Shown here in pieces: positions 40,194 to 59,488 of a stretch of DNA of 64,000 bases. The DNA lies in NCBI GenBank assembly GCA_041671645.1, contig JBAZBD010000001.1, positions 21,561 to 85,560 on the forward strand, in the 5' to 3' direction. This DNA comes from Patescibacteria group bacterium. GTDB lineage: Bacteria > Patescibacteriota > UBA1384 > XYA2-FULL-43-10 > 1-14-0-10-43-13. The notes below the pieces were generated by a model. The model searched no databases, was not told the DNA's origin, and saw only the letters and a program-made list of their open reading frames with translations. Position 1 is the stretch's first letter; each line of letters starts with the position of its first letter. A program made the translations under genes and the position numbers.

Positions 40194-40209
40194 ATTTGAT
40201 TGTAAATCC

Positions 40210-40238
40210 ACAATACCAATGCTTTGGTCGGCTGTCAA
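40210..40238 (-). promoter_or_regulatory. Candidate promoter of riboswitch-metK operon (TTGACA-17-TATTGT)
   Basis: Minus-strand TTGACA (40238-40233), a 17-nt spacer and TATTGT (40215-40210), about 20 nt upstream of the aptamer. Confidence 0.45.
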
Positions 40239-40306
40239 ATTCGTACATTGTAGATCGTGATTATATTTGTTATGTTAGTGATATATTTATTCAGGAAGAG
40301 AATGAA

Positions 40307-42353: not shown

Positions 42354-42355
42354 AT

Positions 42356-44417: not shown

Positions 44418-45464
44418 CTAGTTGAGATGTTTTAGTAATTTGATCAACTTCTCAAATGATTTTGACCATGAATAGCTCCCCGCTGTCTCCAGGCCATTAT
44501 CGATTAACTTTTTACAAAGTTTAGAATCAGCCAAAATTTTCTTAATAGCGGAGGTTGTTTCTTCCGGTCTATTTACCGCGGTGACAATGCAATTTTCCTT
44601 ATTCTTCGCATATTCTCTGGCTCCGACAGTGTCAGTCAAAACCACAGGGGCACCTGACGCCATCGCCTCAAGTGCTGGTAAACCGAAGCTTTCTCCTAGG
44701 CTAGTATTCACGTAGATCAGTGCCCTACTATAGATCTCTGCAAGCTGTTCCCTATCTTTGTATTTTATAAATTCTATTCCGTTCACAATTCTGTCTTCAA
44801 CTGTCGGGGATACTACCTTCGCTTTAATCTCGGGGGAATCTCTTTTGATAATTCTATAAGCTTCCTTAAAAATATGGAAGCCCTTCGGTCTTTGCGGTCG
44901 GCCAACGAAGAGAAGATAATTATCCCTTTTAAGGGAACTCTGATGGAATTCAGGATCAATGCCGTTCTTTACCACCACTGATTTGACCTTGGAAACGCTT
45001 CTCAGGGCTTTTTCTGAGCTATCCGAGACACATACTGCAAGAGCAATGTTTTCAGTGATTTTTTTGTTCCCAAGCATCCGTTTGATAAAAGGGCCGGCCC
45101 AAACCATCTCAAAGAAATCTTGAAAAAGAAAAACAATTTTTGCTTCGAGTTTTTTTTGCTTTTTGGCTTTGATGATTGCCGGTAGCAAAGGAGTATAGAT
45201 CGGAATTAGAAAATCGCACTCTGAAATTAACCCAATTATTTGTTTGAAATAAATTTTCTGGAGAAGAAAGAAATCAACATACCTGATCGGAAAAGATTTA
45301 TATTGTTTGAGCGTAATTCTCCTGTCGATATCAAAAAGAGTTTGGCGGTCAGCAGAGATAATTGTAACCTCGTGGCCACTCTCGGCCAGGAAGTTTGCAT
45401 ACCTGAGCATGACCAAATTACCACCATGCATCTCTAAATTGGGGGTCAGGAAGGTAATTTTCAT
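44418..45464 (-). CDS. Glycosyltransferase family 4
   Basis: NTSLGESFGLPALEAMASGAPVVLTDTVGAREY (EX7E region). Start at MKITFLTPN (45464), which forms ATGA with the upstream stop. Confidence 0.8.
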   Translation of the reverse strand: MKITFLTPNLEMHGGNLVMLRYANFLAESGHEVTIISADRQTLFDIDRRITLKQYKSFPIRYVDFFLLQKIYFKQIIGLISECDFLIPIYTPLLPAIIKAKKQKKLEAKIVFLFQDFFEMVWAGPFIKRMLGNKKITENIALAVCVSDSSEKALRSVSKVKSVVVKNGIDPEFHQSSLKRDNYLLFVGRPQRPKGFHIFKEAYRIIKRDSPEIKAKVVSPTVEDRIVNGIEFIKYKDREQLAEIYSRALIYVNTSLGESFGLPALEAMASGAPVVLTDTVGAREYAKNKENCIVTAVNRPEETTSAIKKILADSKLCKKLIDNGLETAGSYSWSKSFEKLIKLLKHLN

Positions 45465-46429
45465 TTCAGTTTGTCCGTCATCTTTTTTCTCATCGACATC
45501 AGCAGCTTTATCCACGGTCCGTTAAAGACAACAAACGCAAAGATTGAAGTGAACAAATAGGGCACAAAAGCAACAAGCCAATAGTTATTCTCTCGGTAAT
45601 AACTCCAAAGAATTTTATTCATTTCCTCTCGAGACAAGCAATCCTTGATACCCGACTCATCCTCCACAAACTTACGCTGTTCCCTGCTGATCACATGGGT
45701 GGGTCCGGTTGAGAATAAGTCTCTTGTCCTCTTGCCATACTCAAGTTTGTCGATAACGGTAAATTTTCCGACATTAACATCACGCATTCCCTTATTTACT
45801 AAGACTGGTGATTTTCCAGTCAAGAAGAACGGAACCCCGAGATCCACAGCGTTAAGAAGATAGGTACCAACATCGTTGGAGGTGGCATACTTATGACTCG
45901 AAAGTATCCTATAAAAATTTCTGACAAAATCTTGGCTATTCGAAATCCTCGGCCCAGCCGATGTAACGCTAAAGCCTTCATTCCGATAAATATCAGCGCT
46001 CTTGTCAATAAAATCCAACCAGAAGAGGCAGATGGTGACCGGCTGGAATTCAGCCGGAAGAGTTTTAAGCTCCTTACAATATTCCTTGATATTAAAGTCG
46101 CTTTTTAGGAAATAAGTTGAATGACTCGGGAAAACAACTGTCCCCTTTGCGTCAGATTTTATGGTAATTTTGTGGGCATTTTTGTAATGGATGTATGGAG
46201 ACCCCATTACATACGCCGGAATTTTGCTTTTCTTGCGCCAAGCCAAGACCATCCGTTTATTGAAAAGAAAAACACAGGGTTTATCAGTGCTAAGGTCGCT
46301 CACTGCCGGCTCCAAGAGAATGCTCCACCCGTGGTCGATATGACAGGGTAACGGCAGAAACCGTGGAAAGCGAGCGTAGTCTTTCAAAACTTGGTTAAAA
46401 CCGTAATTTCTGCCCTCTGTATATTGCAT
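45461..46429 (-). CDS. Hypothetical protein (322 aa) with C-terminal TM anchor, no family recognised
   Basis: Soluble ~280-aa domain (HIDHGWS, FPSHSTYF) followed by a hydrophobic tail (WLVAFVPYLFTSIFAFVVF). Embedded in the nonulosonate operon. Confidence 0.45.
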   Translation of the reverse strand: MQYTEGRNYGFNQVLKDYARFPRFLPLPCHIDHGWSILLEPAVSDLSTDKPCVFLFNKRMVLAWRKKSKIPAYVMGSPYIHYKNAHKITIKSDAKGTVVFPSHSTYFLKSDFNIKEYCKELKTLPAEFQPVTICLFWLDFIDKSADIYRNEGFSVTSAGPRISNSQDFVRNFYRILSSHKYATSNDVGTYLLNAVDLGVPFFLTGKSPVLVNKGMRDVNVGKFTVIDKLEYGKRTRDLFSTGPTHVISREQRKFVEDESGIKDCLSREEMNKILWSYYRENNYWLVAFVPYLFTSIFAFVVFNGPWIKLLMSMRKKMTDKLK

Positions 46430-46483
46430 AGGTGTCCTAGCGTTAAAAACAACTGTTTAGTAAAACCCATTCCGGCCTAAAGC

Positions 46484-47437
46484 CTAGACCGACGGTTTGA
46501 AGGTCGTAACAAAATATGGTTTAAGTTCCGGATTAAAGCTGAGCTTAAAGTCTCCTCTGTTTGGAGAATTTGCCCCGACAAAATCGACCTCGCTGAGCTT
46601 TTTATCCATTGCATCACGTACAGCATCAGCCAACAATAATGTGCCTGCGTTTAGATTGCGATAATCCGGATGATTTGCCCCGAATAAGTAGAAACCGGAT
46701 CGGTCATCAAAGATAAATAGATTGGCGGCAACCGGCACGCCGTCGACTTTGACACAGGTGAGTCTGCCATAGTGATTATCGAGGGCGCTCTTTGTGATAC
46801 TTCTCAAAAGAAGCGACTCTTTTTCATCACGCTCGATACCTTGGCGCTTAAAGGTTTTATCATGCAGGTCATCCAAAACCATTTCATCGTCAATTTCCTC
46901 GATCTTCAAATTCTCAAAAGCTTTCTTGATCTCCTGCCTTCTTACTTTTCGAATCGTGCCCAGATACTCATCAAAGCTTTCATGCTTCCGGAGATCCAAG
47001 ACGGCTGAATATCTCAACACCAGATTGTATACTCCCTTCTCCGGCTCATGATAATTGAACCATTGAAACGGCCGCATATCAACAAGGCGCCAAGAATGAC
47101 ACAGACACAATTGCCCATAGTGTTCAGTGCACTCAGCGATTAAGAATTCAGTAACCTTAAATTCCAGCGACTGTCGGCGATGTGGCTCCAAAGCTGAATT
47201 ATCAGCAAGCGACAAGCCCTGATACTCGGTGAAGGGAAATACGCCGGAGATAGGACCATCATCGCCAAATAGCACAACCAGACCGGCAACGATCTTATTG
47301 TCCTCGGCACAAGTAACAAGCTCGTATTTTGTATTTAAAGAATTTAAAAACTTTGTCGACACAAATACGCTTCTTTGTGGCGAACTATGGACAAATTCAT
47401 CCCAAAGCTCGGCACTCTCTCCGAATTTTATCTCCAT
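46484..47437 (-). CDS. FemAB/CelD-like GNAT-fold acyltransferase
   Basis: 317 aa. The C-terminal half (NLFIFDDRSGFYLFGANHPDYRNLNAGTLLLADAVRDAMDKKLSEVDFVGANSPNRGDFKLSF) resembles BioF2-like/FemAB-like acetyltransferase domains. Confidence 0.5.
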   Translation of the reverse strand: MEIKFGESAELWDEFVHSSPQRSVFVSTKFLNSLNTKYELVTCAEDNKIVAGLVVLFGDDGPISGVFPFTEYQGLSLADNSALEPHRRQSLEFKVTEFLIAECTEHYGQLCLCHSWRLVDMRPFQWFNYHEPEKGVYNLVLRYSAVLDLRKHESFDEYLGTIRKVRRQEIKKAFENLKIEEIDDEMVLDDLHDKTFKRQGIERDEKESLLLRSITKSALDNHYGRLTCVKVDGVPVAANLFIFDDRSGFYLFGANHPDYRNLNAGTLLLADAVRDAMDKKLSEVDFVGANSPNRGDFKLSFNPELKPYFVTTFKPSV

Positions 47438-47449
47438 ACTATACTCTCG

Positions 47450-48757
47450 CTAATTAGTTAACTGGCCTCTATTCTCCCAGACTTTTTTGAATGCGTTCGC
47501 CACATCATCCAGATCATCCCTCGTCATCGGCGGTCGCATTAATTCATGAGTTACCAGTAATTCGTAATGCATTTTTTCAGTGACCGGACAGATGCCTTTT
47601 TGATAAGAAACGTCATCATTATAAAAAGCACACTTCCATGGGCAGCCTTTGTCGCCATACGCTATTTTTTGCTGAAAAATCGGCTGGAGGTAGAGTGGCT
47701 TCACATAGCCTGTCCCTATTTTCACCCCCTCAGTTTCCCTCAGTTCTATGGGAGCCAGCTCTGCCTTGACGGCTTCAATAAATTTTTCTCTAGTGACTCC
47801 GGCTTTTGCCTCATCAAATTTAATCGCGTGCAGGTAAAAAACATGTTCGCTCTCCGGCCTGACCTTCGCAACCTCAAGACAGGGGATCTGATTTAGTTTA
47901 TCATTGAGATAATTAACGTTGTCAATTCGATCTTTTATCAGCCCAGCTAACTTTCTAAGTTGTACTTGAGCAATCGCTGCCTCAATCTCAGTCATCCGGA
48001 GATTGAAGCCGACCATATTTACTAAATCGCCGACACCTTTATTCTCAACAACGGCTTCAGCGTGGTTCCTTATTAGCCTGATCTTTTCGGCAAGGTCGTC
48101 ATCATCGGTCACGACGATACCGCCCTCACCAGTATGAATATGTTTATGGTAGTTCAGCGAGTAAACACCGATATCTCCGAGAGTACCGGCCCATCTCCCT
48201 TTATATTTAGCTCCTGGAGCCTGGGCACAATCCTCGATAACCAGCAGATGATGTTTCTTTGCGATTGCATTGATCTTATCAGCGTCATACGGTTGGCCGA
48301 ATATGTCGACTACAATAATTGCCTTTGTTTGTTTAGTAATTTTTGCCTCAATCGATTCGGGAGACAGACAAAAGTAGTCCTCCTCAATATCGGCAAAGAC
48401 TGGAATAGAATTAAAAATCAGAGGAGCAGTTGCAGAAGCTGACATCGTATAAGGCGAAACGATAACTTCGTCCCCTGGTCCGGCGCCAACGGCGCCAACG
48501 GCACAATAGAGTCCGGAGGTAGCAGAGTTAACTGAAATTGCATGTTTTACGTTAAAATATTTTGCCCATTTTTCCTCTAGCGCACGTACTTCTGGCCCGC
48601 CATAAAAATCCTCATGCCATGCTCCTAGAAATTTGGATAACACGCCGGACTCAATAACTTTTTTAGTTATCTCAGTCTCTTCTTGCCCCAGAACTCTATA
48701 TGCAGGAAAACTTTTGGCTCTGGTCTTCTCGCCACCGTTAATCGCTAATTTTGGCAT
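47450..48757 (-). CDS. DegT/DnrJ/EryC1/StrS-family PLP aminotransferase (second copy)
   Basis: AISVNSATSGL, VIEDCAQAPGAKYKGR and the SLNYHKHIHTGEGG catalytic Lys region. At 435 aa it is longer than the PseC-type enzyme. Confidence 0.85.
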   Translation of the reverse strand: MPKLAINGGEKTRAKSFPAYRVLGQEETEITKKVIESGVLSKFLGAWHEDFYGGPEVRALEEKWAKYFNVKHAISVNSATSGLYCAVGAVGAGPGDEVIVSPYTMSASATAPLIFNSIPVFADIEEDYFCLSPESIEAKITKQTKAIIVVDIFGQPYDADKINAIAKKHHLLVIEDCAQAPGAKYKGRWAGTLGDIGVYSLNYHKHIHTGEGGIVVTDDDDLAEKIRLIRNHAEAVVENKGVGDLVNMVGFNLRMTEIEAAIAQVQLRKLAGLIKDRIDNVNYLNDKLNQIPCLEVAKVRPESEHVFYLHAIKFDEAKAGVTREKFIEAVKAELAPIELRETEGVKIGTGYVKPLYLQPIFQQKIAYGDKGCPWKCAFYNDDVSYQKGICPVTEKMHYELLVTHELMRPPMTRDDLDDVANAFKKVWENRGQLTN

Positions 48758-49878
48758 AAACTCTGCTCCATATAATCAATTACTCTTTTCACCGGATCTT
48801 TTATTAATTTGAATTCAGCCATCTTCTCTCTTCCGCCGTTTATAGCCGATTTGATCCGGAAATTCAGGGTTCCTTGGTCTAAAATACTTCTCATTAGCCC
48901 AATCCGGTCCAGAACGAAGGGATTGTCCCCTTTGAGCCCGATCTGGATGCTGATCGTCGGTTTACCTAAAATATAAGATTCCAACAGGAACATCGAAGAC
49001 ATCCCACACACAAGATCTGATATTTTTATTAAATCTTGGGAGCAAGAATCCCGATCCAAATATACTTTTATATTATCGCTCTTCAGCTTATTGATCAACC
49101 CATCATAATAGCTTTCGTCCTCTTTGGGGTGAAGTTTTATTATCAGAGAAATTTTAAAGTTTTTCTTAACGTCCTCTATATCAGACAACGCTTCGTGCAA
49201 GCTACAAAATGTCGTGATTTCGTCATAACCAAAGTGTTCCCTAGCATCGCCATATATTTTTCTGATCGGCTCTGAAGCGTAGGTCACAACATAATTGGAG
49301 TGAGAAAGACGATATTTCTTTCTGATCTTTTCCAAAGCATGAGTATCAAATTCTCTATTCTTTAAATACTCGAAGTACGGCTGTCCAGAGACTAAAATCC
49401 GATCTACGGGCAATCCGGCCAAAATCGCCTCACTTTTAGCCAGCTCATCCATCACCAATATCTTTGATGGCAGATACTCATGCTGAGGGTTCTTCTTATA
49501 TTTATCGACATTAGAAACGCCCCATTTTGAAAAACGGATTCCGTAATTTACCCACTGATCCAGAATCGCAAATGAGGGAATGTCCATAATCATGGCCGAT
49601 GACCAAAGATATTTTTCCGTCATATCATCGGCGCTCGTACCGGTAATGATAAAATCTGGTTTTTGGATGAGAAGAAACCCCTTGATCTCTTTTGGACTTA
49701 TTTCTTTGATCTCTTCGGCGATCGGCAAAGCGTGGATTCCGTTTTGGTTAAAACGAGTCATCGCGACATCCTTGCCGAATACTACAACCTTATATCCCCT
49801 CTGTTTCAATGGTTCAAAAAGAGGAATAACCGTGTTAGCTCCGCCGGGATCTCTGGCAAACAGAAGAATTTTCTTCAC
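48745..49878 (-). CDS. GT-B-fold protein: PseG-like UDP-sugar hydrolase or nonulosonate transferase candidate
   Basis: GTG start 2 nt after the upstream stop. N-terminal KILLFARDPGGANTV (Rossmann-like). The C-terminal half has KLHPKE and, 44 residues later, GMSSMFLLESYILGKP, a generic GT-B nucleotide-binding pattern. Confidence 0.4.
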   Translation of the reverse strand: MKKILLFARDPGGANTVIPLFEPLKQRGYKVVVFGKDVAMTRFNQNGIHALPIAEEIKEISPKEIKGFLLIQKPDFIITGTSADDMTEKYLWSSAMIMDIPSFAILDQWVNYGIRFSKWGVSNVDKYKKNPQHEYLPSKILVMDELAKSEAILAGLPVDRILVSGQPYFEYLKNREFDTHALEKIRKKYRLSHSNYVVTYASEPIRKIYGDAREHFGYDEITTFCSLHEALSDIEDVKKNFKISLIIKLHPKEDESYYDGLINKLKSDNIKVYLDRDSCSQDLIKISDLVCGMSSMFLLESYILGKPTISIQIGLKGDNPFVLDRIGLMRSILDQGTLNFRIKSAINGGREKMAEFKLIKDPVKRVIDYMEQSLCQN

Positions 49879-49880
49879 CC

Positions 49881-50834
49881 TTACGATCCCTTCATATTAA
49901 TAGCCGTTTCTAGATCAGCAATGGCCTCTTTGGCTGAGCACAGAAGCGTTTCTTTTTTTGTTAAATGTGAGAATATGTTATCGGCGGCAAAGTATATAGA
50001 CCTATTTAGCGAAGTCTTGAGGTTGTTCTCCTTCACTAGGTATTTATAACCTTCGAACTCATCGCTCTTCTCTACCCGCCAAATCTCAACATCATTTCCT
50101 GAATTGCGTATCTGAATTCTACCGCTAGCAAAAAGGAGTTCCAGTTCGAAGATTGTATAGTTTTTCGAGCCTATCGCCAAGAATGCAACATTGCCTGAGT
50201 TTATCTTCAGAATACCACTCACCGATGGATCGTCAGTAGAAAAATCATTCTCTCTCGCAAAAGGTTCAAACGCACCGGCTTCCCCCAAAAACATCCGAAG
50301 AAGATCGACCATATGCGAGCCATTATGCATAACGCCCTTACCATAGTAAGCCGTACCACAGATAAAGTTACCATATTCGCCTGCCTTAACAGCCTCGGCC
50401 AAATTTATTAGTTCCGGGACAAACCGCCTAGAATAGTTGACCTGCAAGGCGATACTGCGCTCCTCACAGATTTTTACAATCTCCACGGCCTCTAGTAACG
50501 TTTTGGTAATTGGCTTCTCAGCAAAGATAGCCTTGATCGACTTGGTCATCAATGATTTTAGAATCTCCGCATGGAAATCGTCTGGCACGCAAACGCTGAC
50601 AACATCAATGGATTCTGATGAAAATGCTTCGTCAATATCCTTAAAACTACGACATCCCCACGCCTTGGCTGCTTTCGTGCCCCTCTCAGTGTCATTATCG
50701 ACAAAACCAACCAGCTTAAAACCAGGATGTTCGGTATAAGCGTGAGCGTGTGTGATGATGTTTTTGCTGTTGGGAGTATCAAAATACGCTCCAATTTTCC
50801 CAGCTCCAACAATTAAAGCTTTAAGTTTGTCCAT
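49881..50834 (-). CDS. Gfo/Idh/MocA-family NAD(P)-dependent oxidoreductase
   Basis: LKALIVGAGKIG Rossmann start and the EKP motif (IFAEKPITKT); 317 aa. It overlaps the pseF stop by 14 nt. Confidence 0.8.
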   Translation of the reverse strand: MDKLKALIVGAGKIGAYFDTPNSKNIITHAHAYTEHPGFKLVGFVDNDTERGTKAAKAWGCRSFKDIDEAFSSESIDVVSVCVPDDFHAEILKSLMTKSIKAIFAEKPITKTLLEAVEIVKICEERSIALQVNYSRRFVPELINLAEAVKAGEYGNFICGTAYYGKGVMHNGSHMVDLLRMFLGEAGAFEPFARENDFSTDDPSVSGILKINSGNVAFLAIGSKNYTIFELELLFASGRIQIRNSGNDVEIWRVEKSDEFEGYKYLVKENNLKTSLNRSIYFAADNIFSHLTKKETLLCSAKEAIADLETAINMKGS

Positions 50835-51528
50835 TATTTTCCAAAATTTTGTACTTCATCTCGGCGATCTTCCAGTCCTCCAGGGTGTCGATATCCTGAA
50901 CCTCTGATTCAGGTATCTCTACGGGGACAGCATCATCAAGAAATGATTTCTTCTGAGCCAAAAATTTTTCTGTATTATACCAGTAAAACTGGCCACTATC
51001 GTGGTAGGACGATTCCAGATCCTGCGAGTGTTTATGCATATTCTCTGGCCAAATCATTTTTAAGCGGTCCTTTTCAATTTGGAAAGCTCGCTGGATCGGA
51101 AAGCTATATTTTACGACTGCCACAACCTGATCAGCGTGATTTTCCCTTAATTTCTGAAAGCCTAATTTCAATCTTTCAGCATTTATAAACGGTGCGGTCG
51201 ACAAAATCACGCAGAAATTGTCAAAAGATTTGCCCTCCTTCTCATATCTCTTGATCACTTCCTCAAAAACATCAATGAGGTTGGCCTTGCTGTCAGAGTT
51301 CTCCCGACTTCGTAAAAAAGGAACCTTGGCGCCTGATCTTCGTGAAATCTCTGCAATCTCTTCGTCATCTGTCGAGACCATTACCTCGTCAAAACAGCCA
51401 CACTTTACGGCAGCATCGATAGAATATTTAAGAATTGGCTGACCAAGAAAATTTTTGACATTTTTTCTCGGAACTCTCTTGCTACCACCACGGGCGGGGA
51501 TAATGGCTAATGTTTTGCTCTCCATCAT
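50821..51528 (-). CDS. pseF: Acylneuraminate/pseudaminate cytidylyltransferase
   Basis: LAIIPARGGSKRVPRKNVKNFLGQPILKYSIDAA. Start at the MM codons 51528/51525 with GAGG 5 nt upstream; the ORF-track start at 51567 overlaps pseI. Confidence 0.8.
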   Translation of the reverse strand: MMESKTLAIIPARGGSKRVPRKNVKNFLGQPILKYSIDAAVKCGCFDEVMVSTDDEEIAEISRRSGAKVPFLRSRENSDSKANLIDVFEEVIKRYEKEGKSFDNFCVILSTAPFINAERLKLGFQKLRENHADQVVAVVKYSFPIQRAFQIEKDRLKMIWPENMHKHSQDLESSYHDSGQFYWYNTEKFLAQKKSFLDDAVPVEIPESEVQDIDTLEDWKIAEMKYKILENNGQT

Positions 51529-51551
51529 ATAAACCTCGGTCATGATTAATT

Positions 51552-52595
51552 CTAAATGTGCATCCAATTAAGTGGCGTACCCTTTTCTAGGTGTTTTTTG
51601 GCTCTTTTACCCAATATTGCATTGAGATGTTTCGGCGGTAACCCAAAGCCTGGCCTAACCGATCGTATGTTGTCAGTAGTAAATAATTCACCTCGTTCAA
51701 TATTCTCTGCTACAAAAAGTGACCGACAGAAATCTCGGCTCTTGCTTGCCTTTTCGGTCAATTCATAATTCACCTTGCCAAGAGATTCTTCTACTTCTCG
51801 AATAGAACTAACCATTTTGCGAAAATCTTCTGGTTCCATAGAGAAAGATGCATCTGGCCCACCAATTTTTTTATCCAATATGAAATGCTTCTCAATTATC
51901 TTTGCGCCAAGAGCACAGCTAGCGATCGGAATCGCTGAACCAATGGTGTGGTCAGATAAGCCAGCAATCGCTTTCAGCCTCCGACCGATGTCTGGGATCG
52001 TTGCTAAATTTATCTCCCTCAGAGGTGCAGGATATGACGAAGTGCATTTAAGTACTGCAATTTGGTTATTACCCATTCTTCGACAAGCGGCAATAGCATC
52101 CTCTATATCTGATAACTCCGCGACACCTGTCGCTAGTATCATCGGCTTGCCTTTCGACGCGGTATATTCGATCAACGGAATATCTGTAATTTCAAAAGAA
52201 GCAATTTTGTAAGCAGGCACATCCATTTTTTCTAGAAAATCGACAGCCGTATTGTCAAAGGGAGTCGAGAAACACTCCATGCCAAGATCATTGGCGATTT
52301 TCTTGAGCTTCGGCTGCCACTCCCATGGCATAGAGGCCTCTTCGTACAATTTATGAAGATTTTTACCATCCCAGATTGTGCCCTGCTTGATCTTGAAGTA
52401 ATCATTGTCGCAATTTAGTGTAATAGTATCCGCAGTGTAAGTTTGCAACTTTACGGCATCTGCACCTGAATCTCTCATCGCCCTAACAGTGTCCGCTGCT
52501 ATCTCGAATTTGTTTCCATGGTTGGCCGATAATTCGGCGACAATGAATGCCGGAGCTCCATCACCAATCGTTTTATTCCCAATCTTCAATCTCAT
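51552..52595 (-). CDS. pseI: NeuB-family nonulosonate synthase (pseudaminic acid synthase-like)
   Basis: FIVAELSANHGNKFEIAADTVRAMRDSGADAVKLQTY, the LKCTSSYPAP motif and a C-terminal SAF-like domain. ATGA overlap with pseH. Confidence 0.85.
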   Translation of the reverse strand: MRLKIGNKTIGDGAPAFIVAELSANHGNKFEIAADTVRAMRDSGADAVKLQTYTADTITLNCDNDYFKIKQGTIWDGKNLHKLYEEASMPWEWQPKLKKIANDLGMECFSTPFDNTAVDFLEKMDVPAYKIASFEITDIPLIEYTASKGKPMILATGVAELSDIEDAIAACRRMGNNQIAVLKCTSSYPAPLREINLATIPDIGRRLKAIAGLSDHTIGSAIPIASCALGAKIIEKHFILDKKIGGPDASFSMEPEDFRKMVSSIREVEESLGKVNYELTEKASKSRDFCRSLFVAENIERGELFTTDNIRSVRPGFGLPPKHLNAILGKRAKKHLEKGTPLNWMHI

Positions 52596-53092
52596 CGGGA
52601 TCTCTTTCTTAAATCACATTTACAGCGTAAGAATTTCTCTCCGCTTATAACACTTTCTTTCTCGAAAACGAAACCGGCATATTCAGAGTTTCTGACAGCT
52701 GCTAGATTGTTTGGTTTTATGTCACCAGTAGCAAAGCTTATTTCGGGCCGATATTTTTTTAAGTAGTCCATGCCTCTGATAAGAAGAATTTTGCCAAGAC
52801 CATATCCCCTAAACCTTTTGTGAAGACTAACACCGGTCAAGGCCTCGTCCCCTTTGAGATCAAATCTTACTTGACCAGCAAAAAGGCCCTTAGTTTCAGC
52901 GATCAGAAAAATATAATTCTTATCGCAAATTTTTCTGGCGAACCACGCCTTATGGTTCTTAAAATCTAATTTTTCTTGATTTACGGAATTTTTTCTTACC
53001 AAGGGATCATTAAAAAGATAGAAGATCTTTTTGCAATCTTTCTCGGTAGCCAACCGAAGTGTTACGTTGTCTCTAATTTCGTTTTTATCCAT
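52592..53092 (-). CDS. pseH: GNAT N-acyltransferase, PseH-like
   Basis: VTLRLATEKDCKKIFYLFNDPLVRKNS...HKAWF plus the GNAT core RFRGYGLGKILL. Start at MDKNEI (53092), 7 nt after the upstream stop. Confidence 0.65.
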   Translation of the reverse strand: MDKNEIRDNVTLRLATEKDCKKIFYLFNDPLVRKNSVNQEKLDFKNHKAWFARKICDKNYIFLIAETKGLFAGQVRFDLKGDEALTGVSLHKRFRGYGLGKILLIRGMDYLKKYRPEISFATGDIKPNNLAAVRNSEYAGFVFEKESVISGEKFLRCKCDLRKRSR

Positions 53093-53099
53093 TGCCACC

Positions 53100-53936
53100 T
53101 TAAATAATATAAGAATACGGCGCAAACTCCGCATGGTCTTTGCTAATATATCCTATAATGCCTCTTAATTCAGCGTTTGTAAATTCAATCTCATCCTCAA
53201 GATGATCTAATTTGATTGGAAAAGCTTGGATTGTTGCTCCTCGGGGAAAGGATTTGTGCTTATTTGCCATACGCAAAACCCGAGGAAAATGCGGCGAGTG
53301 AGTCACAACGCCGATTATGTCTCCGATATTGAATTCAATGTTCGGAAATTTTAAATCGGTCACCTGATCAATGGTACAAGTGATAGTTCCGTCGGGTATA
53401 CAGAGCTTCTCCTCCGGGAAATTTAGCTTGCCTATTCTGACAGCACTCCTTAAAGCTTCTATTTGTATTTTAACCCCGTTGTAGATTAGATAAGGCCCAA
53501 ATTCTCTGATAATATTTTCGACCTGTTCTTCAGTCAAACTTTTTTGGTCTTCTTCTGAGAGTCCTGAGACAGCAAGACTAATTTCCCGAATAATTTTTAT
53601 GGCGTGGTCAATTCTTTTTTTATCGGAATTGTGCGCCCAAGTTTTATCCTTATAGATAGCATCGCCTGTCAAATCAGTGATCGACTCCTGATAAGTCCCA
53701 GCCCCAGAGATCGCCCAAATCGCTTTGTATGTTTTTGGTTTTTCGTGGTCAAACTGTATCGGTTTTGAAGCTGCTTGATCCAAACTCTCAATTTCAAGAA
53801 CAACTGTTTTTATGAGATGATCGAGCCGATCCTCGTGACCACGCCAATACTCTCCATGCTCTTCAGTCGCATAGTCGAGGAGGGCCGGACTATCAATCCC
53901 TTTAGTTAATTTTGATATAGTTTTTTTCTCATTCAT
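53100..53936 (-). CDS. DUF218 (YdcF/ElyC/SanA-like) domain protein
   Basis: The block order AIWAISGAG ... RIDHAIKII ... LIYNGVKIQIEALR ... IGVVTHSPHFPRVLRM parallels the DUF218 pattern (vvLGgG..Rl..a..sGg..Ea..VTs.yH.pRa). GGAG lies 8 nt before the ATG at 53936. Confidence 0.5.
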   Translation of the reverse strand: MNEKKTISKLTKGIDSPALLDYATEEHGEYWRGHEDRLDHLIKTVVLEIESLDQAASKPIQFDHEKPKTYKAIWAISGAGTYQESITDLTGDAIYKDKTWAHNSDKKRIDHAIKIIREISLAVSGLSEEDQKSLTEEQVENIIREFGPYLIYNGVKIQIEALRSAVRIGKLNFPEEKLCIPDGTITCTIDQVTDLKFPNIEFNIGDIIGVVTHSPHFPRVLRMANKHKSFPRGATIQAFPIKLDHLEDEIEFTNAELRGIIGYISKDHAEFAPYSYII

Positions 53937-53977
53937 ATGATCGACTCCGCAATCTTTCCATACAAGAGGCATCGACG

Positions 53978-54712
53978 CTATAGCCAACCGCCGTTGATAC
54001 CGATACATTCTCCGGTAATATAGCTGCTGTCGTCAGAAGCCAAAAAAATGGCTAGTTTCGCAATTTCTTGCGGTTTGGCTAATCTGCCAAGAGCAATTTT
54101 TGGCAAAACTTTTGTTTTCATTATTTCATCTGGGACTCCGGCCACCATATCAGTTTCTGTAAAACCGGGGCAAATGGCGTTGACTGTGATACCGTATCGT
54201 GCCGTTTCCTTGGCCAGAGACTTGGTCAGGCCGATCAAGCCGGCCTTGGCGGCGCTATAGTTTGTTTGGCCGAAGTTACCGATCTGAGCTATAATGGAGG
54301 AAATATTGATGATTCGCCCTCCGCCATTTTCAACCATTTTAGGTAAAAATTGTTTGATGATGAAAAAGGGGCCGTAAAGATCAGTTTTAATCACGGCGTC
54401 CCAATCCTCGAGAGACAACTTCAATAGCGTTCTATCTCTAGCAATACCAGCATTATTTACCACAACATCCACCTGGCCAAATTGATCCAGAATTTTCGCG
54501 CAAGCTTTTTCTACTTCTTCGTAGTTAGCTACATCAAAGTAGAATATGGAGCTCTTGGGAGAAATTTCTTTGACCTCAGCGACGGTCTGCTTGGAAGCGT
54601 CGTTTTCTTTGGTTCCCGTCATCGCTATTGTATAACCATTTTTCGCGAACTCCAGGGCCATACTTTTGCCAATTCCTCTGGTCGATCCAGTGATAACAGC
54701 AATCTTATTCAT
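53978..54712 (-). CDS. SDR reductase, PhaB-type acetoacetyl-CoA reductase / FabG-like
   Basis: ITGSTRGIGK, NNAGIARD and ISSIIAQIGNFGQTNYSAAKAGLIGLTKSLAKE. The FGQTNYS.AKAG block is closer to the PhaB sequences I recall than to E. coli FabG (GQANYAAAKAG). 8-nt overlap with the thiolase gene. Confidence 0.85.
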   Translation of the reverse strand: MNKIAVITGSTRGIGKSMALEFAKNGYTIAMTGTKENDASKQTVAEVKEISPKSSIFYFDVANYEEVEKACAKILDQFGQVDVVVNNAGIARDRTLLKLSLEDWDAVIKTDLYGPFFIIKQFLPKMVENGGGRIINISSIIAQIGNFGQTNYSAAKAGLIGLTKSLAKETARYGITVNAICPGFTETDMVAGVPDEIMKTKVLPKIALGRLAKPQEIAKLAIFLASDDSSYITGECIGINGGWL

Positions 54713-55889
54713 AGTTTTCTATCAGCATCGCAATGCCCTGACCACCACCAATACAAAGCGAGGCTACCCCATATTTTAATTTTCTTCTTTTGAGTTCATG
54801 GATGAGACTGACCAAGATACGAGCGCCACTTGCGCCAATTGGGTGGCCGAGGGCGATAGCTCCACCGTTTACATTAACAATTTTTTCATCTATACCAAGT
54901 AGTTTCAAGGCAGCAACACTTTGGCTGGCAAAAGCCTCGTTTAGTTCCCAAAGATCGATATCTTCAATCTTGAAATTTGCCTTCTTGAGGCAAGCAACTA
55001 CTGCATAATAAACACCCATACCCATGATCTTGGGATCCAGACCAACAGAAGCATAACTCATAATCCTAGCCATGGGCTTGATTTTCTCATTTTGAACAAA
55101 TTTTTCAGAGGCAACGAAGATAACCGCAGCTCTATCATTTAAGGATGAGGAGTTGCCTGCTGTCACGGTGCCGTCTTTGTCGAATATGGGCTTCAACTTA
55201 GCAAGCGCCTCAAACGTTGTGTCGGCACGGGGTTGCTCGTCAATTTTGAACTCCGCCATTTCTTTCTTCTGCTTCACCAGAACAGGAACAATCTCATCTG
55301 ACAGACGGTTCTCCATCATGGCCGCAAGGGCTTTCTCATGACTTCTGAACGCAAATCGATCCTGGTCTTCCCTAGAAACTTTGTATTTCTTGGCAACATT
55401 TTCAGCTGTTACCCCCATATGTTCGCCGATCAAGGAACAAAATAATCCATCAGTAATCATACTATCTTTGATCGTCTGATCTCCAAGTTTTACTCCGAAC
55501 CGATGATCATCAATTAAATATGGGCTACGGCTCATGTTTTCCATCCCACCAGCGACAATCAAGTCTGCTTCTCTGAGCTCGATCGCCTGGCTGGCCAAGG
55601 TAATGCTTTTTAACCCTGATCCACAAACCTTGTTTACTGTGTAGGCCGGAACTGATTCAGGAATTCCTGCCTTGACGCTAGCAATTCTGGCCGGATTCTG
55701 CCCCAATCCAGCAGACAAAACATTGCCAAGAATAACTTCTCCGACTTTCTTTTCAATCCCTGGATTCTCGGCAATCAAATTTTTGATAACAGCCGCAGCA
55801 AGCTCTGGTGCTGAGCTACCCTGAAGACTACCACCGAATTTTCCAACGGCTGTTCTTTTGGCTGAGACGATATACACATTTTCTTTCAT
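54705..55889 (-). CDS. Acetyl-CoA C-acetyltransferase (thiolase II)
   Basis: [12 protein letters not shown] (active-site Cys), [18 protein letters not shown] and [15 protein letters not shown]; 394 aa; GAGGAA RBS. Confidence 0.92.
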
Positions 55890-55910
55890 AACATATTCCT
55901 CGGCTCCTAG

Positions 55911-57062
55911 TCAGCTGACCAGTATTTTTATTTTTTGGATAACAAAGTTTACTTCAACATCGGTCATTTTTGGATACAATGGTAAGCTCAAACACTGCTC
56001 GTAATACGCTTCTGCAACAGGATAATCCCCAACCTTATACCCGTATGTGTCTTGATAATAAGGCTGCAAGTGAGCAGGAATATAATGAACCTGCGAGCCA
56101 ACATTGTTTTTCCTTAATTCTTCCATCACCTCTTTGCGCGTCTTACCAATTTTAGCAAAATCAATTTTTAATACGTAAAGATGAAATGCAGAGCCGACGC
56201 CTGGCTTTTCATAAGGGGTAACGACATTTGGAAGTTTAGCGAACGCTTTATTGTATTTATCAACGATTTCCCGACGGCGTGCAGCAAATTTGTCAAGTTT
56301 CCTAAGCTGACTCAAACCAAGCGCAGCTTGTATGTCAGTAATACGATAATTGAAGCCAAGATCTTGCATTTCATAGTACCAAGGACCGGGATTTTGGCTT
56401 AATATTGCTGGATCTTTGGTGATACCATGAGATCGAAGCAGGAGCAACTGTTTGTATATTTTTTCATCATTTGTAGTGATAGCCCCGCCCTCTCCAGTAG
56501 TAATCGTCTTAACCGGATGGAACGAGAAGGTCGTCAGATCGGAATATTTGTTTGACCCAACCTTACTGCCATCAGCAAACGAAGATCCGATAGAGTGAGC
56601 GGCGTCCTCAATTACATAAATGCCTTTACTCTTCGCAAAATCGTATATTTCCTCCAAGTCGGCGACCTGGCCAGCAAAATCGACGGCCACAATTACCTTG
56701 GTTTTGTCGGTCACTCTCTTCTTGATTTCCACTAGGTCAATATTGCAGGTGTCCTCCCTGATATCCGCGAAAGCAGGGGTTAGCCCGCAATAAGCAAGGC
56801 AGTTGGCTGAAGCAACAAATGTATTGGGTGTGGTGATCCCCTCACCGTTCCCTAAATTTAATGCTAAAACGGCCAAATGGAGGGCGGCCGTGCCGTTGGA
56901 GACGGCGACACAATGTTTTGCGCCAGTATATTTGCAAATTGCCTGCTCAAACTCCTCTATTTTTGGACCTTGTGTCAAGAAGTCGCTTTTGAGCGTTTGG
57001 ACAACTTCAGCGATATCGTCGTCATCAAGCCACTGCTTGCCATATGCAATAAAACTATTCAT
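55911..57062 (-). CDS. pseC: UDP-4-amino-4,6-dideoxy-N-acetyl-beta-L-altrosamine transaminase-like (DegT family)
   Basis: The N-terminus IAYGKQWLDDDDIAEV is typical of PseC. It also has HCVAVSNGTAALHLA and FSFHPVKTITTGEGG (catalytic Lys). The ATG at 57062 lies one base after the pseB TAA. Confidence 0.85.
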   Translation of the reverse strand: MNSFIAYGKQWLDDDDIAEVVQTLKSDFLTQGPKIEEFEQAICKYTGAKHCVAVSNGTAALHLAVLALNLGNGEGITTPNTFVASANCLAYCGLTPAFADIREDTCNIDLVEIKKRVTDKTKVIVAVDFAGQVADLEEIYDFAKSKGIYVIEDAAHSIGSSFADGSKVGSNKYSDLTTFSFHPVKTITTGEGGAITTNDEKIYKQLLLLRSHGITKDPAILSQNPGPWYYEMQDLGFNYRITDIQAALGLSQLRKLDKFAARRREIVDKYNKAFAKLPNVVTPYEKPGVGSAFHLYVLKIDFAKIGKTRKEVMEELRKNNVGSQVHYIPAHLQPYYQDTYGYKVGDYPVAEAYYEQCLSLPLYPKMTDVEVNFVIQKIKILVS

Positions 57063-57063
57063 T

Positions 57064-58062
57064 TTAATACACAATCTCTATTGATTTCAAAAATTCTGTA
57101 ATGCCTTTTTGATCCAACCACTCATCGTTTAAATCTGAGGAATAGCGGAATCCCTCCATCACTTTCTTGCTCCCTGGTTTGCAATGAATTTTTGGGTTCC
57201 ACCAATCAAAATCTGGATAGATAATGTAGTGATCGCCGTAGTCATGGGTTAATCTGGAGTCTTCCTCAGTGATCATGACTTCATGAAGTTTCTCCCCTTC
57301 CCTGATGCCAATTTCTTTAAGCTTGACCTCTTTGTGCATCGCTTTGGCCAAATCAGTAATTTTGACAGACGGGATCTTGGACACATAAATCTCGCCGCCT
57401 TTGGCTTCTTTGATCGCCTTAAATACAAGATCGACGCCTTGATTGAGAGTTATTAAAAATCGGGTCATACGGAAATCAGTGATCGGAATTATTCTTTGGC
57501 CAGAATCTAACAACTGTTTGAAGAAAGGTATGACTGAGCCGCGGCTACCGGCAACGTTGCCATATCGGACTACAGAAAAAACTGGGCCCTTGCCCCCAGA
57601 GTAAGCGTTGGCGGAAACAAACAATCTATCAGAGACTAACTTGGTGGCCCCATAAAGGTTGACTGGATTGACAGCTTTATCGGTAGAAAGAGCAACTACT
57701 TTCTCGACCCCGCAGTCCAAAGCCGCATCGATTACATTCTCTGCGCCGTGAATATTGGTTTTGATGGCCTCCATCGGGTTGTATTCGGCTATCGGCACAT
57801 GCTTCATAGCGGCCGCATGGATCACAATATCTACTCCATTGAGGGCCCTCTTCAGACGATCTTTGTCACGGACATCTCCGATAAAGTAACGCAGCTGACT
57901 GTCATATTCGGCGAACTGTCGGCGCATCATGTATTGCTTATACTCGTCACGAGAATAAATGATGATCTTTTTTGGTTTATATTCAGACAAAATCCGCTTA
58001 GTAAATTGCTTACCAAATGAGCCGGTCCCACCCGTGATTAGAATTGTTTTATTATTTAGCAT
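57064..58062 (-). CDS. pseB: UDP-N-acetylglucosamine 4,6-dehydratase (inverting), PseB/FlaA1-like
   Basis: Near-collinear with H. pylori FlaA1 as I recall it: NKTILITGGTGSFGK, FIGDVRD, HAAAMKHVPIAEYNP, STDKAVNPVNLYGATK, VRYGNVAGSRGSVIPFF, GIREGEKLHE. Confidence 0.92.
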   Translation of the reverse strand: MLNNKTILITGGTGSFGKQFTKRILSEYKPKKIIIYSRDEYKQYMMRRQFAEYDSQLRYFIGDVRDKDRLKRALNGVDIVIHAAAMKHVPIAEYNPMEAIKTNIHGAENVIDAALDCGVEKVVALSTDKAVNPVNLYGATKLVSDRLFVSANAYSGGKGPVFSVVRYGNVAGSRGSVIPFFKQLLDSGQRIIPITDFRMTRFLITLNQGVDLVFKAIKEAKGGEIYVSKIPSVKITDLAKAMHKEVKLKEIGIREGEKLHEVMITEEDSRLTHDYGDHYIIYPDFDWWNPKIHCKPGSKKVMEGFRYSSDLNDEWLDQKGITEFLKSIEIVY

Positions 58063-58110
58063 ATCCGTACCTCTTAATAATCAAGTAGAAAAATTTGTAA
58101 TTGTCTCGAC

Positions 58111-59403
58111 TCACTCGCTCATTACTTTCTTTATATAGAAACGCTGAATCGCTATCGTGATACAATAGTTTGCTATCAGAGTCCCAATCACTAAAGACAC
58201 GGAGAAGAAGCTAAACCTCACAGCCACTATATAGAGGCAAATCGCTAAGAAATTTACTCCATATGTAGTTAACAGACATTTCCTATAATATTGTTCCGAA
58301 AAATCAAGAATGATTGTAGCATATATCGATTGGAACAGAAAGACAACTGAGAGCACGGAGAAGCCAATAACATAAAATAAACTGACCGGGTATTGCCGCC
58401 CAAATATTGATAACATTATTAGAGTCAAGCAAGATGCAAGAACAAACAGCGGCAGGAACCCAATACAAAAGATTTTATCAATTTTTTTAATAAATGCTTT
58501 GTCTTTTACCCGAACTGTAGCAGGGAAAAATACGTTGTTAAACAATTGCCCAGCTTGTGCGATCAAGGTAAAAGAAGAAAAATAATAGGCACTGTATATG
58601 CCAAACGCTGTGAATCCAAGATATTTCGCAATTATTATTTTGTCAGCGGATAAGAAAATCGTGCCAAGCAGCGCGCTTATGAGAAACCATTTCCCCTCCC
58701 TCAAAACAGCCAATGAATCAGTAAAGTTACTTTTGCCAAAATATCTTTTAAGATAGGATAGATAATAAATCGATATTGCTATAGCCCCAGCGACTAGAAC
58801 TGAAACGAATCCCGCAAATGTGTGATCTTTTAGGACAAAAAACACCGCGATAAATAGAACGGCAACGATAATCACCTCGAATATCTTAGCCTTAGCCTGA
58901 ACTTTGAACTCCTCCAGCCCTCTAATGGACGAATCAAATAAAGTTTTAGCTGAGAAAACAATTGTGTAGCATATGAGCATCAGAAAAAAGGATTTTCCTC
59001 CAGACATTATCCGGCTCACAAAAGGATAAACTATTGGCGAGAGGACCACCAACCCGACTAGCACCAGAAAAACAATGTTGCTTATTGATGAGATAACCCG
59101 TTTTCTAGCTTTAACGGAAGGGTCTCTCGCGATGCTTCTGATAAGTACTGTATCCAGACCCAAAAAAATGAAAATAATTAAATACTGATTTGCAACCAGC
59201 ATGAGATTGTATTTTCCATACTCGATCGGTCCCATGAAGCGCCCAGCCAGGGTGGTAATCAGCATGAGAATTGGTAAGGCTCCGATGCCAGACAAAAAGG
59301 ACCACGATAGGCGAGTTAAGAATGACCGCATCTCATCCCCCATCTCATGACCGAAGACCTTGAGGTGGACTTTTTCGACAAATTGTACTAATCTTTTTTT
59401 CAT
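58111..59403 (-). CDS. Wzx-like polysaccharide flippase (MOP superfamily)
   Basis: 430 aa with about 12 TM segments and an N-terminal pattern (GALPILMLITTLAGRFMGPIEYGKY) typical of Wzx proteins. First gene of the minus-strand operon. Confidence 0.65.
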   Translation of the reverse strand: MKKRLVQFVEKVHLKVFGHEMGDEMRSFLTRLSWSFLSGIGALPILMLITTLAGRFMGPIEYGKYNLMLVANQYLIIFIFLGLDTVLIRSIARDPSVKARKRVISSISNIVFLVLVGLVVLSPIVYPFVSRIMSGGKSFFLMLICYTIVFSAKTLFDSSIRGLEEFKVQAKAKIFEVIIVAVLFIAVFFVLKDHTFAGFVSVLVAGAIAISIYYLSYLKRYFGKSNFTDSLAVLREGKWFLISALLGTIFLSADKIIIAKYLGFTAFGIYSAYYFSSFTLIAQAGQLFNNVFFPATVRVKDKAFIKKIDKIFCIGFLPLFVLASCLTLIMLSIFGRQYPVSLFYVIGFSVLSVVFLFQSIYATIILDFSEQYYRKCLLTTYGVNFLAICLYIVAVRFSFFSVSLVIGTLIANYCITIAIQRFYIKKVMSE

Positions 59404-59431
59404 AATTCTTGTCCGATCATATCAGGAATGA

Positions 59432-59460
59432 TTGCTCTTATAAACCCTTGATGATAATAT
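59432..59460 (+). promoter_or_regulatory. Candidate rfb operon promoter (TTGCTC-17-TAATAT)
   Basis: TTGCTC at 59432-37, a 17-nt spacer and TAATAT at 59455-60, 28 nt before the rfbA ATG, which has an AAGGAG RBS. Pattern match only. Confidence 0.35.
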
Positions 59461-59488
59461 TTGAGTCAGATAAATAAAAGGAGTCCAT

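Follow-up and report, generated by a model that had tools for sequence, protein, structure and literature searches.

Pseudaminic acid (Pse) is a sialic-acid-like sugar found on the flagella, capsules and O-antigens of pathogens. The canonical six-enzyme route, in which PseB, PseC, PseH, PseG, PseI and PseF convert uridine diphosphate N-acetylglucosamine (UDP-GlcNAc) to cytidine monophosphate (CMP)-pseudaminic acid, is known from Helicobacter pylori and Campylobacter jejuni, is regarded as settled and is a drug target. Other systems that add amino groups to sugars are those of WbpB, WbpE, WbpD and WbpI of Pseudomonas aeruginosa, which produce UDP-2,3-diacetamido sugars, and of KdnB and KdnA of Shewanella, which produce 8-amino-3-deoxy-D-manno-octulosonic acid (8-amino-Kdo). 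N7-(3-hydroxybutanoyl)-Pse occurs naturally in Shigella boydii type 7 and Acinetobacter, and in Acinetobacter an acyltransferase/hydrolase gene pair is exchanged together when the acyl group changes (PsaD/E versus PsaG/H) (PMC9676051, PMC3628348). The O-antigen of Flexibacter (Tenacibaculum) maritimus contains 5-acetamido-7-(3-hydroxybutyramido)-8-amino-3,5,7,8,9-pentadeoxy-manno-nonulosonic acid (PMC3210612). The present analysis concerns a 15-gene operon in a 64,000-nucleotide stretch of DNA from a Patescibacteria group bacterium, hereafter the window (positions 21,561 to 85,560 of contig JBAZBD010000001.1, assembly GCA_041671645.1). The operon is probably best explained as a whole by a decorated Pse pathway with a substitute PseG, and what replaces the missing PseG is the most informative point of the locus.

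An earlier note on the window, made from the sequence alone, had described 15 consecutive minus-strand genes running from a wzx gene (59403) down to a glycosyltransferase gene (44418). This layout is borne out, with no plus-strand gene of similar size among them. From first to last the genes are:

58111..59403, minus strand: gene for a Wzx-type oligosaccharide flippase, first in the operon (430 amino acids)
57064..58062, minus strand: PseB gene, inverting UDP-GlcNAc 4,6-dehydratase (332 amino acids)
55911..57062, minus strand: PseC gene, UDP-4-amino-4,6-dideoxy-beta-L-N-acetylaltrosamine (AltNAc) transaminase (383 amino acids from the ATG at 57062)
54705..55889, minus strand: gene for a biosynthetic thiolase (acetyl-coenzyme A (CoA) C-acetyltransferase; 394 amino acids)
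53978..54712, minus strand: gene for a FabG/PhaB-type 3-oxoacyl reductase (244 amino acids)
53100..53936, minus strand: gene for a DUF218-fold protein, putative PseG substitute (278 amino acids)
52592..53092, minus strand: gene for a GNAT N-acyltransferase, putative PseH counterpart (166 amino acids)
51552..52595, minus strand: PseI gene, pseudaminic acid synthase (347 amino acids)
50821..51528, minus strand: PseF gene, CMP-pseudaminic acid synthetase (235 amino acids)
49881..50834, minus strand: gene for a Gfo/Idh/MocA sugar dehydrogenase dependent on nicotinamide adenine dinucleotide (NAD), first gene of a conserved trio (317 amino acids)
48745..49878, minus strand: gene for a GT-B protein (GTB377), a distant relative of UDP-GlcNAc 2-epimerase, second gene of the trio (377 amino acids)
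47450..48757, minus strand: gene for a second DegT-family aminotransferase dependent on pyridoxal phosphate (PLP), third gene of the trio (435 amino acids)
46484..47437, minus strand: gene for a FemAB-like/Acetyltransf_6 acyl- or aminoacyl-transferase (317 amino acids)
45461..46429, minus strand: orf322, of a family without annotation whose C-terminal segment is hydrophobic; putative transferase or assembly factor for the nonulosonic acid
44418..45464, minus strand: GT4 glycosyltransferase gene, last in the operon (348 amino acids from the ATG at 45464)

The identities of the core enzymes were judged by NCBIfam equivalog cut-offs. PseB (TIGR03589, 537.6 bits against a cut-off of 407.75), PseC (TIGR03588, 500.2 against 423.5), PseI (TIGR03586, 486.5 against 340.25) and PseF (TIGR03584, 292.8 against 205.7) all pass, and the models of the legionaminic acid (Leg) and Neu branches score far lower: LegB reaches 80 against 475 (with PseB), LegC 227 (with PseC) and 181 against 420, and NeuB 296 against 399.65 (with PseI). 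Since the Pse models are passed and the Leg and Neu models are not, the stereochemical branch is that of pseudaminic acid, and the operon almost certainly carries the Pse core. The earlier note had recognized five Pse enzymes by motif; these four stand, but its PseH-like GNAT (52592-53092) fails the PseH model (TIGR03585, 16.9 bits against 93.1). Thus four of the six defining enzymes are recovered at equivalog level, and analogues occupy the positions of PseH and PseG. The second half of the operon was also considered as a partial legionaminic acid pathway, which we rejected: models of the LegB, LegC and NeuC type stay below their cut-offs, and the operon has a single synthase and a single cytidylyltransferase.

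None of the 15 operon proteins matches PseG or Glyco_tran_28_C. Loci for comparison (L numbers below) were fetched via the DUF218-like protein, the trio, orf322 and PseI, and all their open reading frames (ORFs) were labelled with jackhmmer profiles, that of PseG being seeded from annotated PseG proteins of Bacillus mycoides, Parabacteroides and a Desulfuromonadales contig. This PseG profile has no match in the 64-kb window and none in the loci with a DUF218-like gene, and it detects PseG in every fetched Pse locus without one (seven loci). In all, a DUF218-like gene is seen without PseG in 13 distinct loci (the window, L002/L003, L007-L016 and L022) and PseG without a DUF218-like gene in eight (L004, L005/6, L017-L020, L023 and, by Pfam Glyco_tran_28_C, L027), so that the two never occur together in any of the 21 distinct informative loci. 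The neighbouring acyltransferase follows the same division: the window-type GNAT co-varies with the DUF218-like gene, and canonical PseH with PseG. Furthermore, five relatives (P0123, P0125, P0130, P0132 and P0187) are DUF218-like/GNAT fusions with the GNAT, close in sequence to that of the window, at the C-terminus, to which a canonical PseG/GNAT fusion in Parabacteroides is the counterpart.

The 278-residue protein itself has the nucleotide-binding YdcF/DUF218 fold, with the conserved Thr, His and Glu positions present. The residues conserved in its family, T188-I-D-Q, H216-x-x-R219 and E256, match T125, H149 and E182 of SanA by short, statistically weak local motif alignments, and these SanA residues are required for function in vivo (PMC12176290). 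The protein scores 18.4 bits against the PF02698 (DUF218) gathering score of 27.6, with family member P0140 reaching 22.8; hhalign of the family profile against single SanA and YdcF sequences gave no significant match, and a sequence search of the PDB with the 278-residue protein returned nothing useful. Based on the exclusive distribution, the GNAT fusions, the synteny and the conserved putative catalytic residues, the DUF218-like protein is probably a non-orthologous replacement of PseG, and we predict it to be a UDP-sugar hydrolase. We also observed that the Pse cluster of L010 encodes two DUF218-type proteins, the divergent one and a bona fide member (Pfam 54.6 bits) whose gene lies between pseB and pseC, together with an aldo/keto reductase and a class-III aminotransferase (5843-6559 and 7625-9958).

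The trio is a real, widespread and uncharacterised module linked to nonulosonic-acid genes. The order Gfo, 377-residue protein, DegT is kept in nine of nine independent loci, always downstream of a CTP_transf_3 gene, either immediately or with one or two genes between, and with NeuB close by; two of the nine, both from Clostridium, are flagellar glycosylation islands that also hold genes for flagellin and Maf. Homologues of the 377-residue protein number 538 and span Patescibacteria, Clostridium and Desulfuromonadales, typically at 45-50% identity. In five loci an N-acyltransferase gene follows the trio: FemAB-like in the window (PF13480, 62.3 bits against 22; PF02388, 37.9 against 24) and in L024, GNAT in L021 and L023, and both in L026. 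The Gfo protein is recovered by PF01408 (83.3 bits) and has the EKP motif in its translation, and the DegT protein by PF01041 (301.5 bits), with scores below the PseC, LegC and ArnB cut-offs. The closest solved relative of the latter is Fic25 (8gyh, 207 bits), an enzyme whose keto substrate is linear and bound to a carrier (PMC11726168); perosamine synthase, BtrR and KdnA (PDB 5k8b) come next, and WbpE reaches 129 bits. The 377-residue protein is collinear with WecB in hhalign, though weakly; of the models for bacterial sialyltransferase-like GT-B proteins (PF07388, BFO_1060 family) it touches PF07388 (23.5 bits, nominally over the gathering score of 23.3) across 62 residues, about a fifth of the model, and NF046086 in part (60.6 against 200), with no full-length match. 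Sequence searches with it gave nothing useful in the PDB and nothing by tblastn against plasmids.

Tentatively, and with a slight preference over the alternative below, we take the trio to act on the nonulosonate itself, by oxidation, transamination and N-acylation after the synthase step. As C3 of the hexose becomes C6 in the nonulosonic ring, an extra amino group on the nonulosonate could be installed only after the synthase has acted, which agrees with the conserved position of the trio behind the cytidylyltransferase gene. Two points weigh against this assignment: the middle protein has no equivalent of WecB E117 and only weak, partial sialyltransferase-like matches, and no PseC-type gene lies within 9-10 kb of the trio in the two Clostridium islands, where the DegT of the trio may serve as the aminotransferase of the core pathway rather than in an extra role. 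The alternative, raised in the earlier note as a companion diamino sugar, is that the trio and the FemAB-like protein supply a second sugar, a nucleotide-activated 2,3-diamino sugar distinct from the nonulosonic acid, along the lines of WbpB/WbpE/WbpD/WbpI, the steps being 3-dehydrogenation of UDP-GlcNAc, then transamination, N-acylation and lastly 2-epimerisation. Such a pathway is possible but somewhat unlikely: the best NCBIfam model for the Gfo protein, archaeal UDP-GlcNAc 3-dehydrogenase NF040723, is reached with 73.7 bits against 450 (the WlbA structure 3q2k with 23), and the other model scores are likewise far under their cut-offs; the DegT protein resembles WbpE less than it does Fic25, perosamine synthase, BtrR and KdnA; the position of the catalytic E117 of WecB is Asn in the 377-residue protein; and the restriction of the module, in all nine loci, to the vicinity of NeuB and a place behind a CMP-sugar synthetase gene would be unexpected for an independent UDP-sugar pathway.

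Other observations bear on the genes around the trio. The flagellar islands of Clostridium sp. DL-VIII (L004) and Clostridium sp. CMCC3677 (L027) combine the trio with two different CTP_transf_3 genes and with PseB-like, PseG and PseI genes. In Desulfuromonadales-type loci (L005/L006 3862-9035 and L024 7043-13728), genes for B12-binding and SPASM radical-SAM proteins lie amid pseF and the trio, which suggests C-methylation or a similar change of the same sugar.

The proposal that the DUF218-like protein takes the place of PseG has to be weighed against another, namely that it has some other accessory role in the Pse pathway and that UDP is removed by the 377-residue GT-B protein, acting as a hydrolase of the NeuC type, or by a PseG encoded elsewhere. 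Four points tell against replacement: a biochemical activity is known for no DUF218 protein (PMC12176290), which equally favours the alternative; the genome was seen in part only, so that the absence of PseG holds for a 64-kb window of an 868-kb contig and a PseG elsewhere in the genome is possible; several of the loci bearing the DUF218-like gene are short contigs; and the motif alignment to SanA is statistically weak. We nevertheless consider the alternative unlikely. The 377-residue family occurs together with canonical PseG in L004, L005, L023 and L027, and is missing from four complete Pse loci of 20 kb (L010, L013, L015 and L022), which have the DUF218-like gene and lack PseG; on these grounds the 377-residue protein was rejected as the missing PseG. 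In addition, the DUF218-like gene and PseG exclude each other in all 21 loci, and the DUF218-like/GNAT fusions mirror those of PseG and GNAT.

The 15 genes probably form one transcript. All junctions quoted in the earlier note were found: TAA-A-ATG between PseB and PseC (57066-57060), ATGA between GNAT and PseI (52595-52592) and between orf322 and GT4 (45464-45461), and TAA-GG-GTG between Gfo and GTB377 (49883-49876). The extremes also match, being a 14-nucleotide overlap of PseF and Gfo (50821-50834) and a 54-nucleotide gap between the FemAB-like gene and orf322. Start codons were chosen with the help of the gene calls on an identical Logan contig, of Shine-Dalgarno-like motifs and of the lengths of homologues, and differ from the longest-ORF starts in PseC (57062), the DUF218-like gene (53936), GNAT (53092), PseF (51528) and GT4 (45464). 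The reductase start at 54712 (244 amino acids) agrees with a 245-residue homologue in L002; the start at 54661 called on the Logan contig (227 amino acids) was rejected, as it removes the glycine-rich nucleotide-binding motif. The 3' end of the operon meets a convergent gene, with the stops seven nucleotides apart. Two non-coding features bear on the extent of the transcript:

59404..59488, no strand: wzx/rmlA divergent intergenic region of 85 bp, probable operon promoter region
46472..46492, minus strand: weak hairpin resembling a terminator, in the 54-nucleotide gap that separates the FemAB-like gene from orf322, with a 9-pair stem (4 G-C) and the tail AATGGGTTTT

The intergenic region holds a promoter-like minus-strand site at 59444-59416 (TTTATA, a 17-nucleotide spacer, TATGAT and an upstream TG), which is a consensus match only. 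The hairpin makes the claim of the earlier note that there is no internal terminator slightly overstated; the remaining predicted hairpins lie within coding sequence (23 in total versus 13.9 +/- 3.8 in shuffles). It is also the point that counts against a single transcript, which may be split there into two or more units, with wzx to the FemAB-like gene for biosynthesis and orf322 and GT4 for assembly. Such a split is improbable in our judgement, even though this sole intergenic hairpin falls in the largest gap (54 nucleotides) and orf322 is preceded by an AGGA Shine-Dalgarno-like motif: the stem has only four G-C pairs of nine and a poor T tract, the gap has no promoter-like match, and orf322 homologues lie within 10 nucleotides of the preceding same-strand gene (a 4-nucleotide gap in L021, an overlap with NeuB in L022). 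Within a single transcription unit the hairpin is possibly an attenuator.

The acyl group of the sugar can be approached through the thiolase, the reductase and the GNAT. The thiolase passes TIGR01930 (477 bits against 240.6), contains Thiolase_N and Thiolase_C and has the catalytic Cys/His/Cys motifs, including CIGGG, in its translation, and falls short of the PhaA equivalog (350 against 740). The reductase is recovered by adh_short_C2 (222 bits) and passes the FabG subfamily model NF009466 (245 against 222), lies slightly below TIGR01829 (acetoacetyl-CoA reductase, 272 against 302) and TIGR01830 (FabG, 282 against 298), and is far from the PhaB equivalog (196 against 436). Its start overlaps the stop of the thiolase by eight nucleotides. 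The GNAT gives 32.8 bits with Acetyltransf_3, was separate from canonical PseH in the jackhmmer labelling and has motifs near-identical to those of the GNAT domain in the DUF218-like fusions P0123, P0125 and P0130; it is a putative functional PseH counterpart, possibly specific for 3-hydroxybutyryl. The thiolase and reductase genes stand between PseC and the DUF218-like gene in the window, in L002/L003 (65% identity) and in L007 (47%), and in L009 and L010 an unrelated pair of thiolase-like (Thiolase_C_1) and short-chain dehydrogenase/reductase (SDR) genes adjoins the DUF218-like gene at the same spot, suggesting repeated selection for a supply of 3-hydroxyacyl groups. Hence the two enzymes would probably provide (R)-3-hydroxybutyryl-CoA for N-acylation, leading to a Pse5Ac7Hb-type sugar. 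Two findings speak against this: the reductase is slightly under both equivalog cut-offs, and in L011, L013, L015 and L016 the DUF218-like/GNAT pair occurs without thiolase and reductase, from which it follows that the pair is not intrinsically specific for 3-hydroxybutyryl. That the two are general-metabolism genes placed in the operon by chance, with ordinary Pse5Ac7Ac as product, is quite improbable, for although both families are generic, the reductase misses the acetoacetyl-CoA reductase cut-off and Acinetobacter makes Pse5Ac7RHb without dedicated genes of this type, the pair is set with its overlap and short gaps between PseC and the DUF218-like/GNAT genes, keeps this placement in three lineages at only 47-65% identity, and has unrelated equivalents in the same place in two further loci.

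In L013 (3074-6547) and L015 (8864-9967), genes for NHL-repeat beta-propeller proteins lie between pseC and the DUF218-like gene. The Pse cluster of L013 also encodes a two-subunit enzyme resembling pyruvate:ferredoxin oxidoreductase and dependent on thiamine pyrophosphate (TPP), possibly another acyl-CoA supply.

Taken together, we propose that one transcription unit in a surface-glycan island would provide CMP-pseudaminic acid with non-acetyl N-acyl groups to a Wzx-type assembly system. PseB and PseC, identified by hidden Markov models (HMMs), would convert UDP-GlcNAc to UDP-4-amino-4,6-dideoxy-beta-L-AltNAc, while the thiolase and the FabG/PhaB-type reductase are predicted to turn two acetyl-CoA into (R)-3-hydroxybutyryl-CoA. 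The GNAT would then transfer 3-hydroxybutyryl or acetyl to the 4-amino group (N7 in the finished sugar), and the DUF218-fold protein would take off UDP in place of the absent PseG. PseI would join the product to phosphoenolpyruvate and PseF make the CMP-sugar, both again identified by HMMs. After the synthase or the CMP-activation step, the trio and the FemAB-like protein may, with less certainty, oxidise a hydroxyl, transaminate it and N-acylate the new amine; finally orf322 and GT4 would build the glycan on a lipid carrier for Wzx to flip. The proposal of the earlier note that the operon makes, CMP-activates and probably installs a Pse-type sugar with non-standard N-acylation and/or an extra amino function is thus supported. 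A bolder version, in which the product is a triamino nonulosonic acid with a Pse skeleton, an N7-(3-hydroxybutyryl) group and a third, N-acylated or N-aminoacylated amine (at C8 or C4) added by the trio, with DUF218 as the hydrolase, seems doubtful to us.

The proteins predicted for assembly are less easily classified. Wzx is recovered by Pfam Polysacc_synt (80.5 bits) and Polysacc_synt_3 and has a homologue at the same position in L002 and L016. GT4 has many NCBIfam matches of the GT4 type, all under cut-off, and Pfam Glyco_transf_4 and Glycos_transf_1 on the identical contig. For orf322, no match was found in Pfam, NCBIfam or the PDB by sequence, a 38-sequence profile against PDB and Pfam was also empty, and comparison with the 377-residue GT-B family showed no relationship. 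Its 91 homologues are mostly from Patescibacteria and unclassified bacteria, and in L018 (Aureibacter), L021, L022 and L023 they lie directly after NeuB or beside a glycosyltransferase gene; the ATGA overlap with GT4 recurs in L021. By this genomic context, orf322 is a candidate nonulosonic-acid transferase or assembly factor.

The operon is part of a glycan island of ~40 kb (about 22-63 kb of the window) that also contains an rml operon, a second flippase gene and additional genes of the GT4 and GT2 types. Among them, GT4 genes occupy 22621-23820 and 33587-34684 and a GT2 gene 32544-33545; two Wzy_C proteins, which are O-antigen ligase/polymerase-like, are encoded in tandem at 25032-27576, and the second, MurJ/Wzx-type flippase at 30233-31660; several large ORFs (23801-25147, 27690-28871, 28979-30232 and 35104-36597) have no Pfam match. 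Convergent to the operon, at 40136-44410 on the plus strand, are genes for a GT2, a DUF2304 protein, a second GT2 and a 684-residue polytopic membrane protein with no Pfam match. A membrane protein of 656-684 residues with an adjacent GT2 also lies near the orf322 homologues of L021 (11995-15064) and L022 (12957-16972), both Patescibacteria-type loci, and L022 holds the whole block, which looks like a GtrA/GtrB/GT-C-style system of extracytoplasmic glycosylation from a polyprenyl-phosphate sugar. The longest ORF of the first GT2 (TTG at 40136) overlaps a SAM-I riboswitch (40097-40194, minus strand; RF00162, 49.9 bits against a gathering score of 44.4) upstream of metK (38807-40039, minus strand), and therefore the GT2 probably starts later. 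On the other side, a divergent rmlA-rmlC-NUDIX-rmlB-rmlD operon occupies 59489-63354 on the plus strand, its NUDIX hydrolase gene (60939-61478) being set inside the genes for deoxythymidine diphosphate (dTDP)-rhamnose with overlapping or abutting junctions.

Comparative genomics also bears out the view of the earlier note that the interleaved genes are not passengers. Other lineages share the order thiolase, reductase, DUF218-like gene and GNAT between PseC and PseI, the trio is beside NeuB and CTP_transf_3 genes in nine of nine loci, the FemAB-like gene follows the trio in L024 and L026, and orf322 follows NeuB or a glycosyltransferase gene in four other loci. The 15-gene combination was met only in the source organism, that is, in the metagenome-assembled genome (MAG) of the window and the identical Logan contig. 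The suggestion that no cluster of this composition has been described holds insofar as no such paper was found in the literature searched, yet the sub-modules are widespread: the whole operon is a mosaic of recurring modules, not a one-off. The same literature held nothing on the 15-gene arrangement, on Pse in Patescibacteria or on a DUF218 role in nucleotide-sugar synthesis, and searches of it for triamino nonulosonic acids and for the oxidoreductase/aminotransferase genes of Clostridium glycosylation islands gave nothing relevant. While the core is ordinary, the predicted PseG substitution and the uncharacterised, widespread trio are testable elements.

Another module seen beside Pse genes, and absent from the window, consists of a protein of ~372-411 residues with GATase and HisF-like proteins, identified by Pfam in L021 (4728-7361), L023 (12980-15603) and L026 (128-2932) and by ORF size only in L009 (7254-9887), L013 (7347-9940) and L015 (11382-13988). 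It probably serves acetamidino formation, as PseA does with HisH and HisF.

These results suggest that in a group of bacteria, most of them uncultivated, the PseG step has apparently been taken over by a member of the DUF218 superfamily. The Escherichia coli members SanA and ElyC control the flux of cell-envelope precursors; if the predicted hydrolysis of UDP-sugars, or of similar pyrophosphate-linked sugars, is true, it offers a concrete hypothesis for the whole superfamily, and the protein of the operon would be its first member with a defined enzymatic activity. The three genes of the trio form a strongly conserved module that has over 500 homologues, Clostridium islands included, and always adjoins nonulosonic-acid genes in the loci examined; were the triamino proposal correct, this module would be the missing route to 8-amino nonulosonic acids such as that of Tenacibaculum maritimum, and one widely used, including in Clostridium flagellin glycosylation. 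Furthermore, a small-genome member of the Patescibacteria, presumed to have minimal metabolism, devotes 15 genes, including its own thiolase and reductase, to one decorated surface sugar, an outlay that bears on how episymbionts present themselves to their hosts.

Compared with the canonical pathway of H. pylori and C. jejuni, the locus shares equivalog-level PseB, PseC, PseI and PseF, a GNAT in the place of PseH and the logic from UDP-GlcNAc to CMP-sugar, but its GNAT fails the PseH model, a DUF218-fold protein stands where the GT-B PseG would be, and eight further genes are interleaved. Unlike the E. coli DUF218 proteins SanA, ElyC and YdcF (PMC12176290; PDB 3ca8), the window protein is below the Pfam cut-off, has a long N-terminal helical extension and no predicted membrane anchor, and sits within nucleotide-sugar biosynthesis genes. 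With the psaABCGHF set of Acinetobacter baumannii and the psb set of S. boydii type 7 the operon shares the likely product class, 5-N-acetyl-7-N-[(R)-3-hydroxybutanoyl]pseudaminic acid, and the principle that a change of the N7 acyl group goes with a joint exchange of acyltransferase and UDP-hydrolase; however, those are six-gene sets in which thiolase and reductase are not listed (PMC9676051), whereas the window operon brings both, and their hydrolase step is described as a PsaD/Psb4 counterpart, from which the DUF218-fold candidate would differ in fold. PhaA and PhaB of polyhydroxybutyrate synthesis represent the same two enzyme classes in the same order, with the same expected (R)-3-hydroxybutyryl-CoA, but the window proteins lie below the PhaA and PhaB cut-offs and no polyhydroxyalkanoate (PHA) synthase was found among the scanned window ORFs. 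Like the Wbp and Kdn routes, the trio pairs a dehydrogenase with a DegT aminotransferase, in some cases along with an acyltransferase and a protein of epimerase fold, for the addition of an amino group; unlike them it reaches no equivalog cut-off and is tied to CMP-sugar synthetase and NeuB genes, and KdnB belongs to a different dehydrogenase family from the Gfo protein of the window. The F. maritimus sugar, with its Pse-like skeleton, 3-hydroxybutyryl N-acyl group and third, amide-linked amino group, is a chemical precedent, and a sugar of that type could in principle be produced by the gene content of the window.

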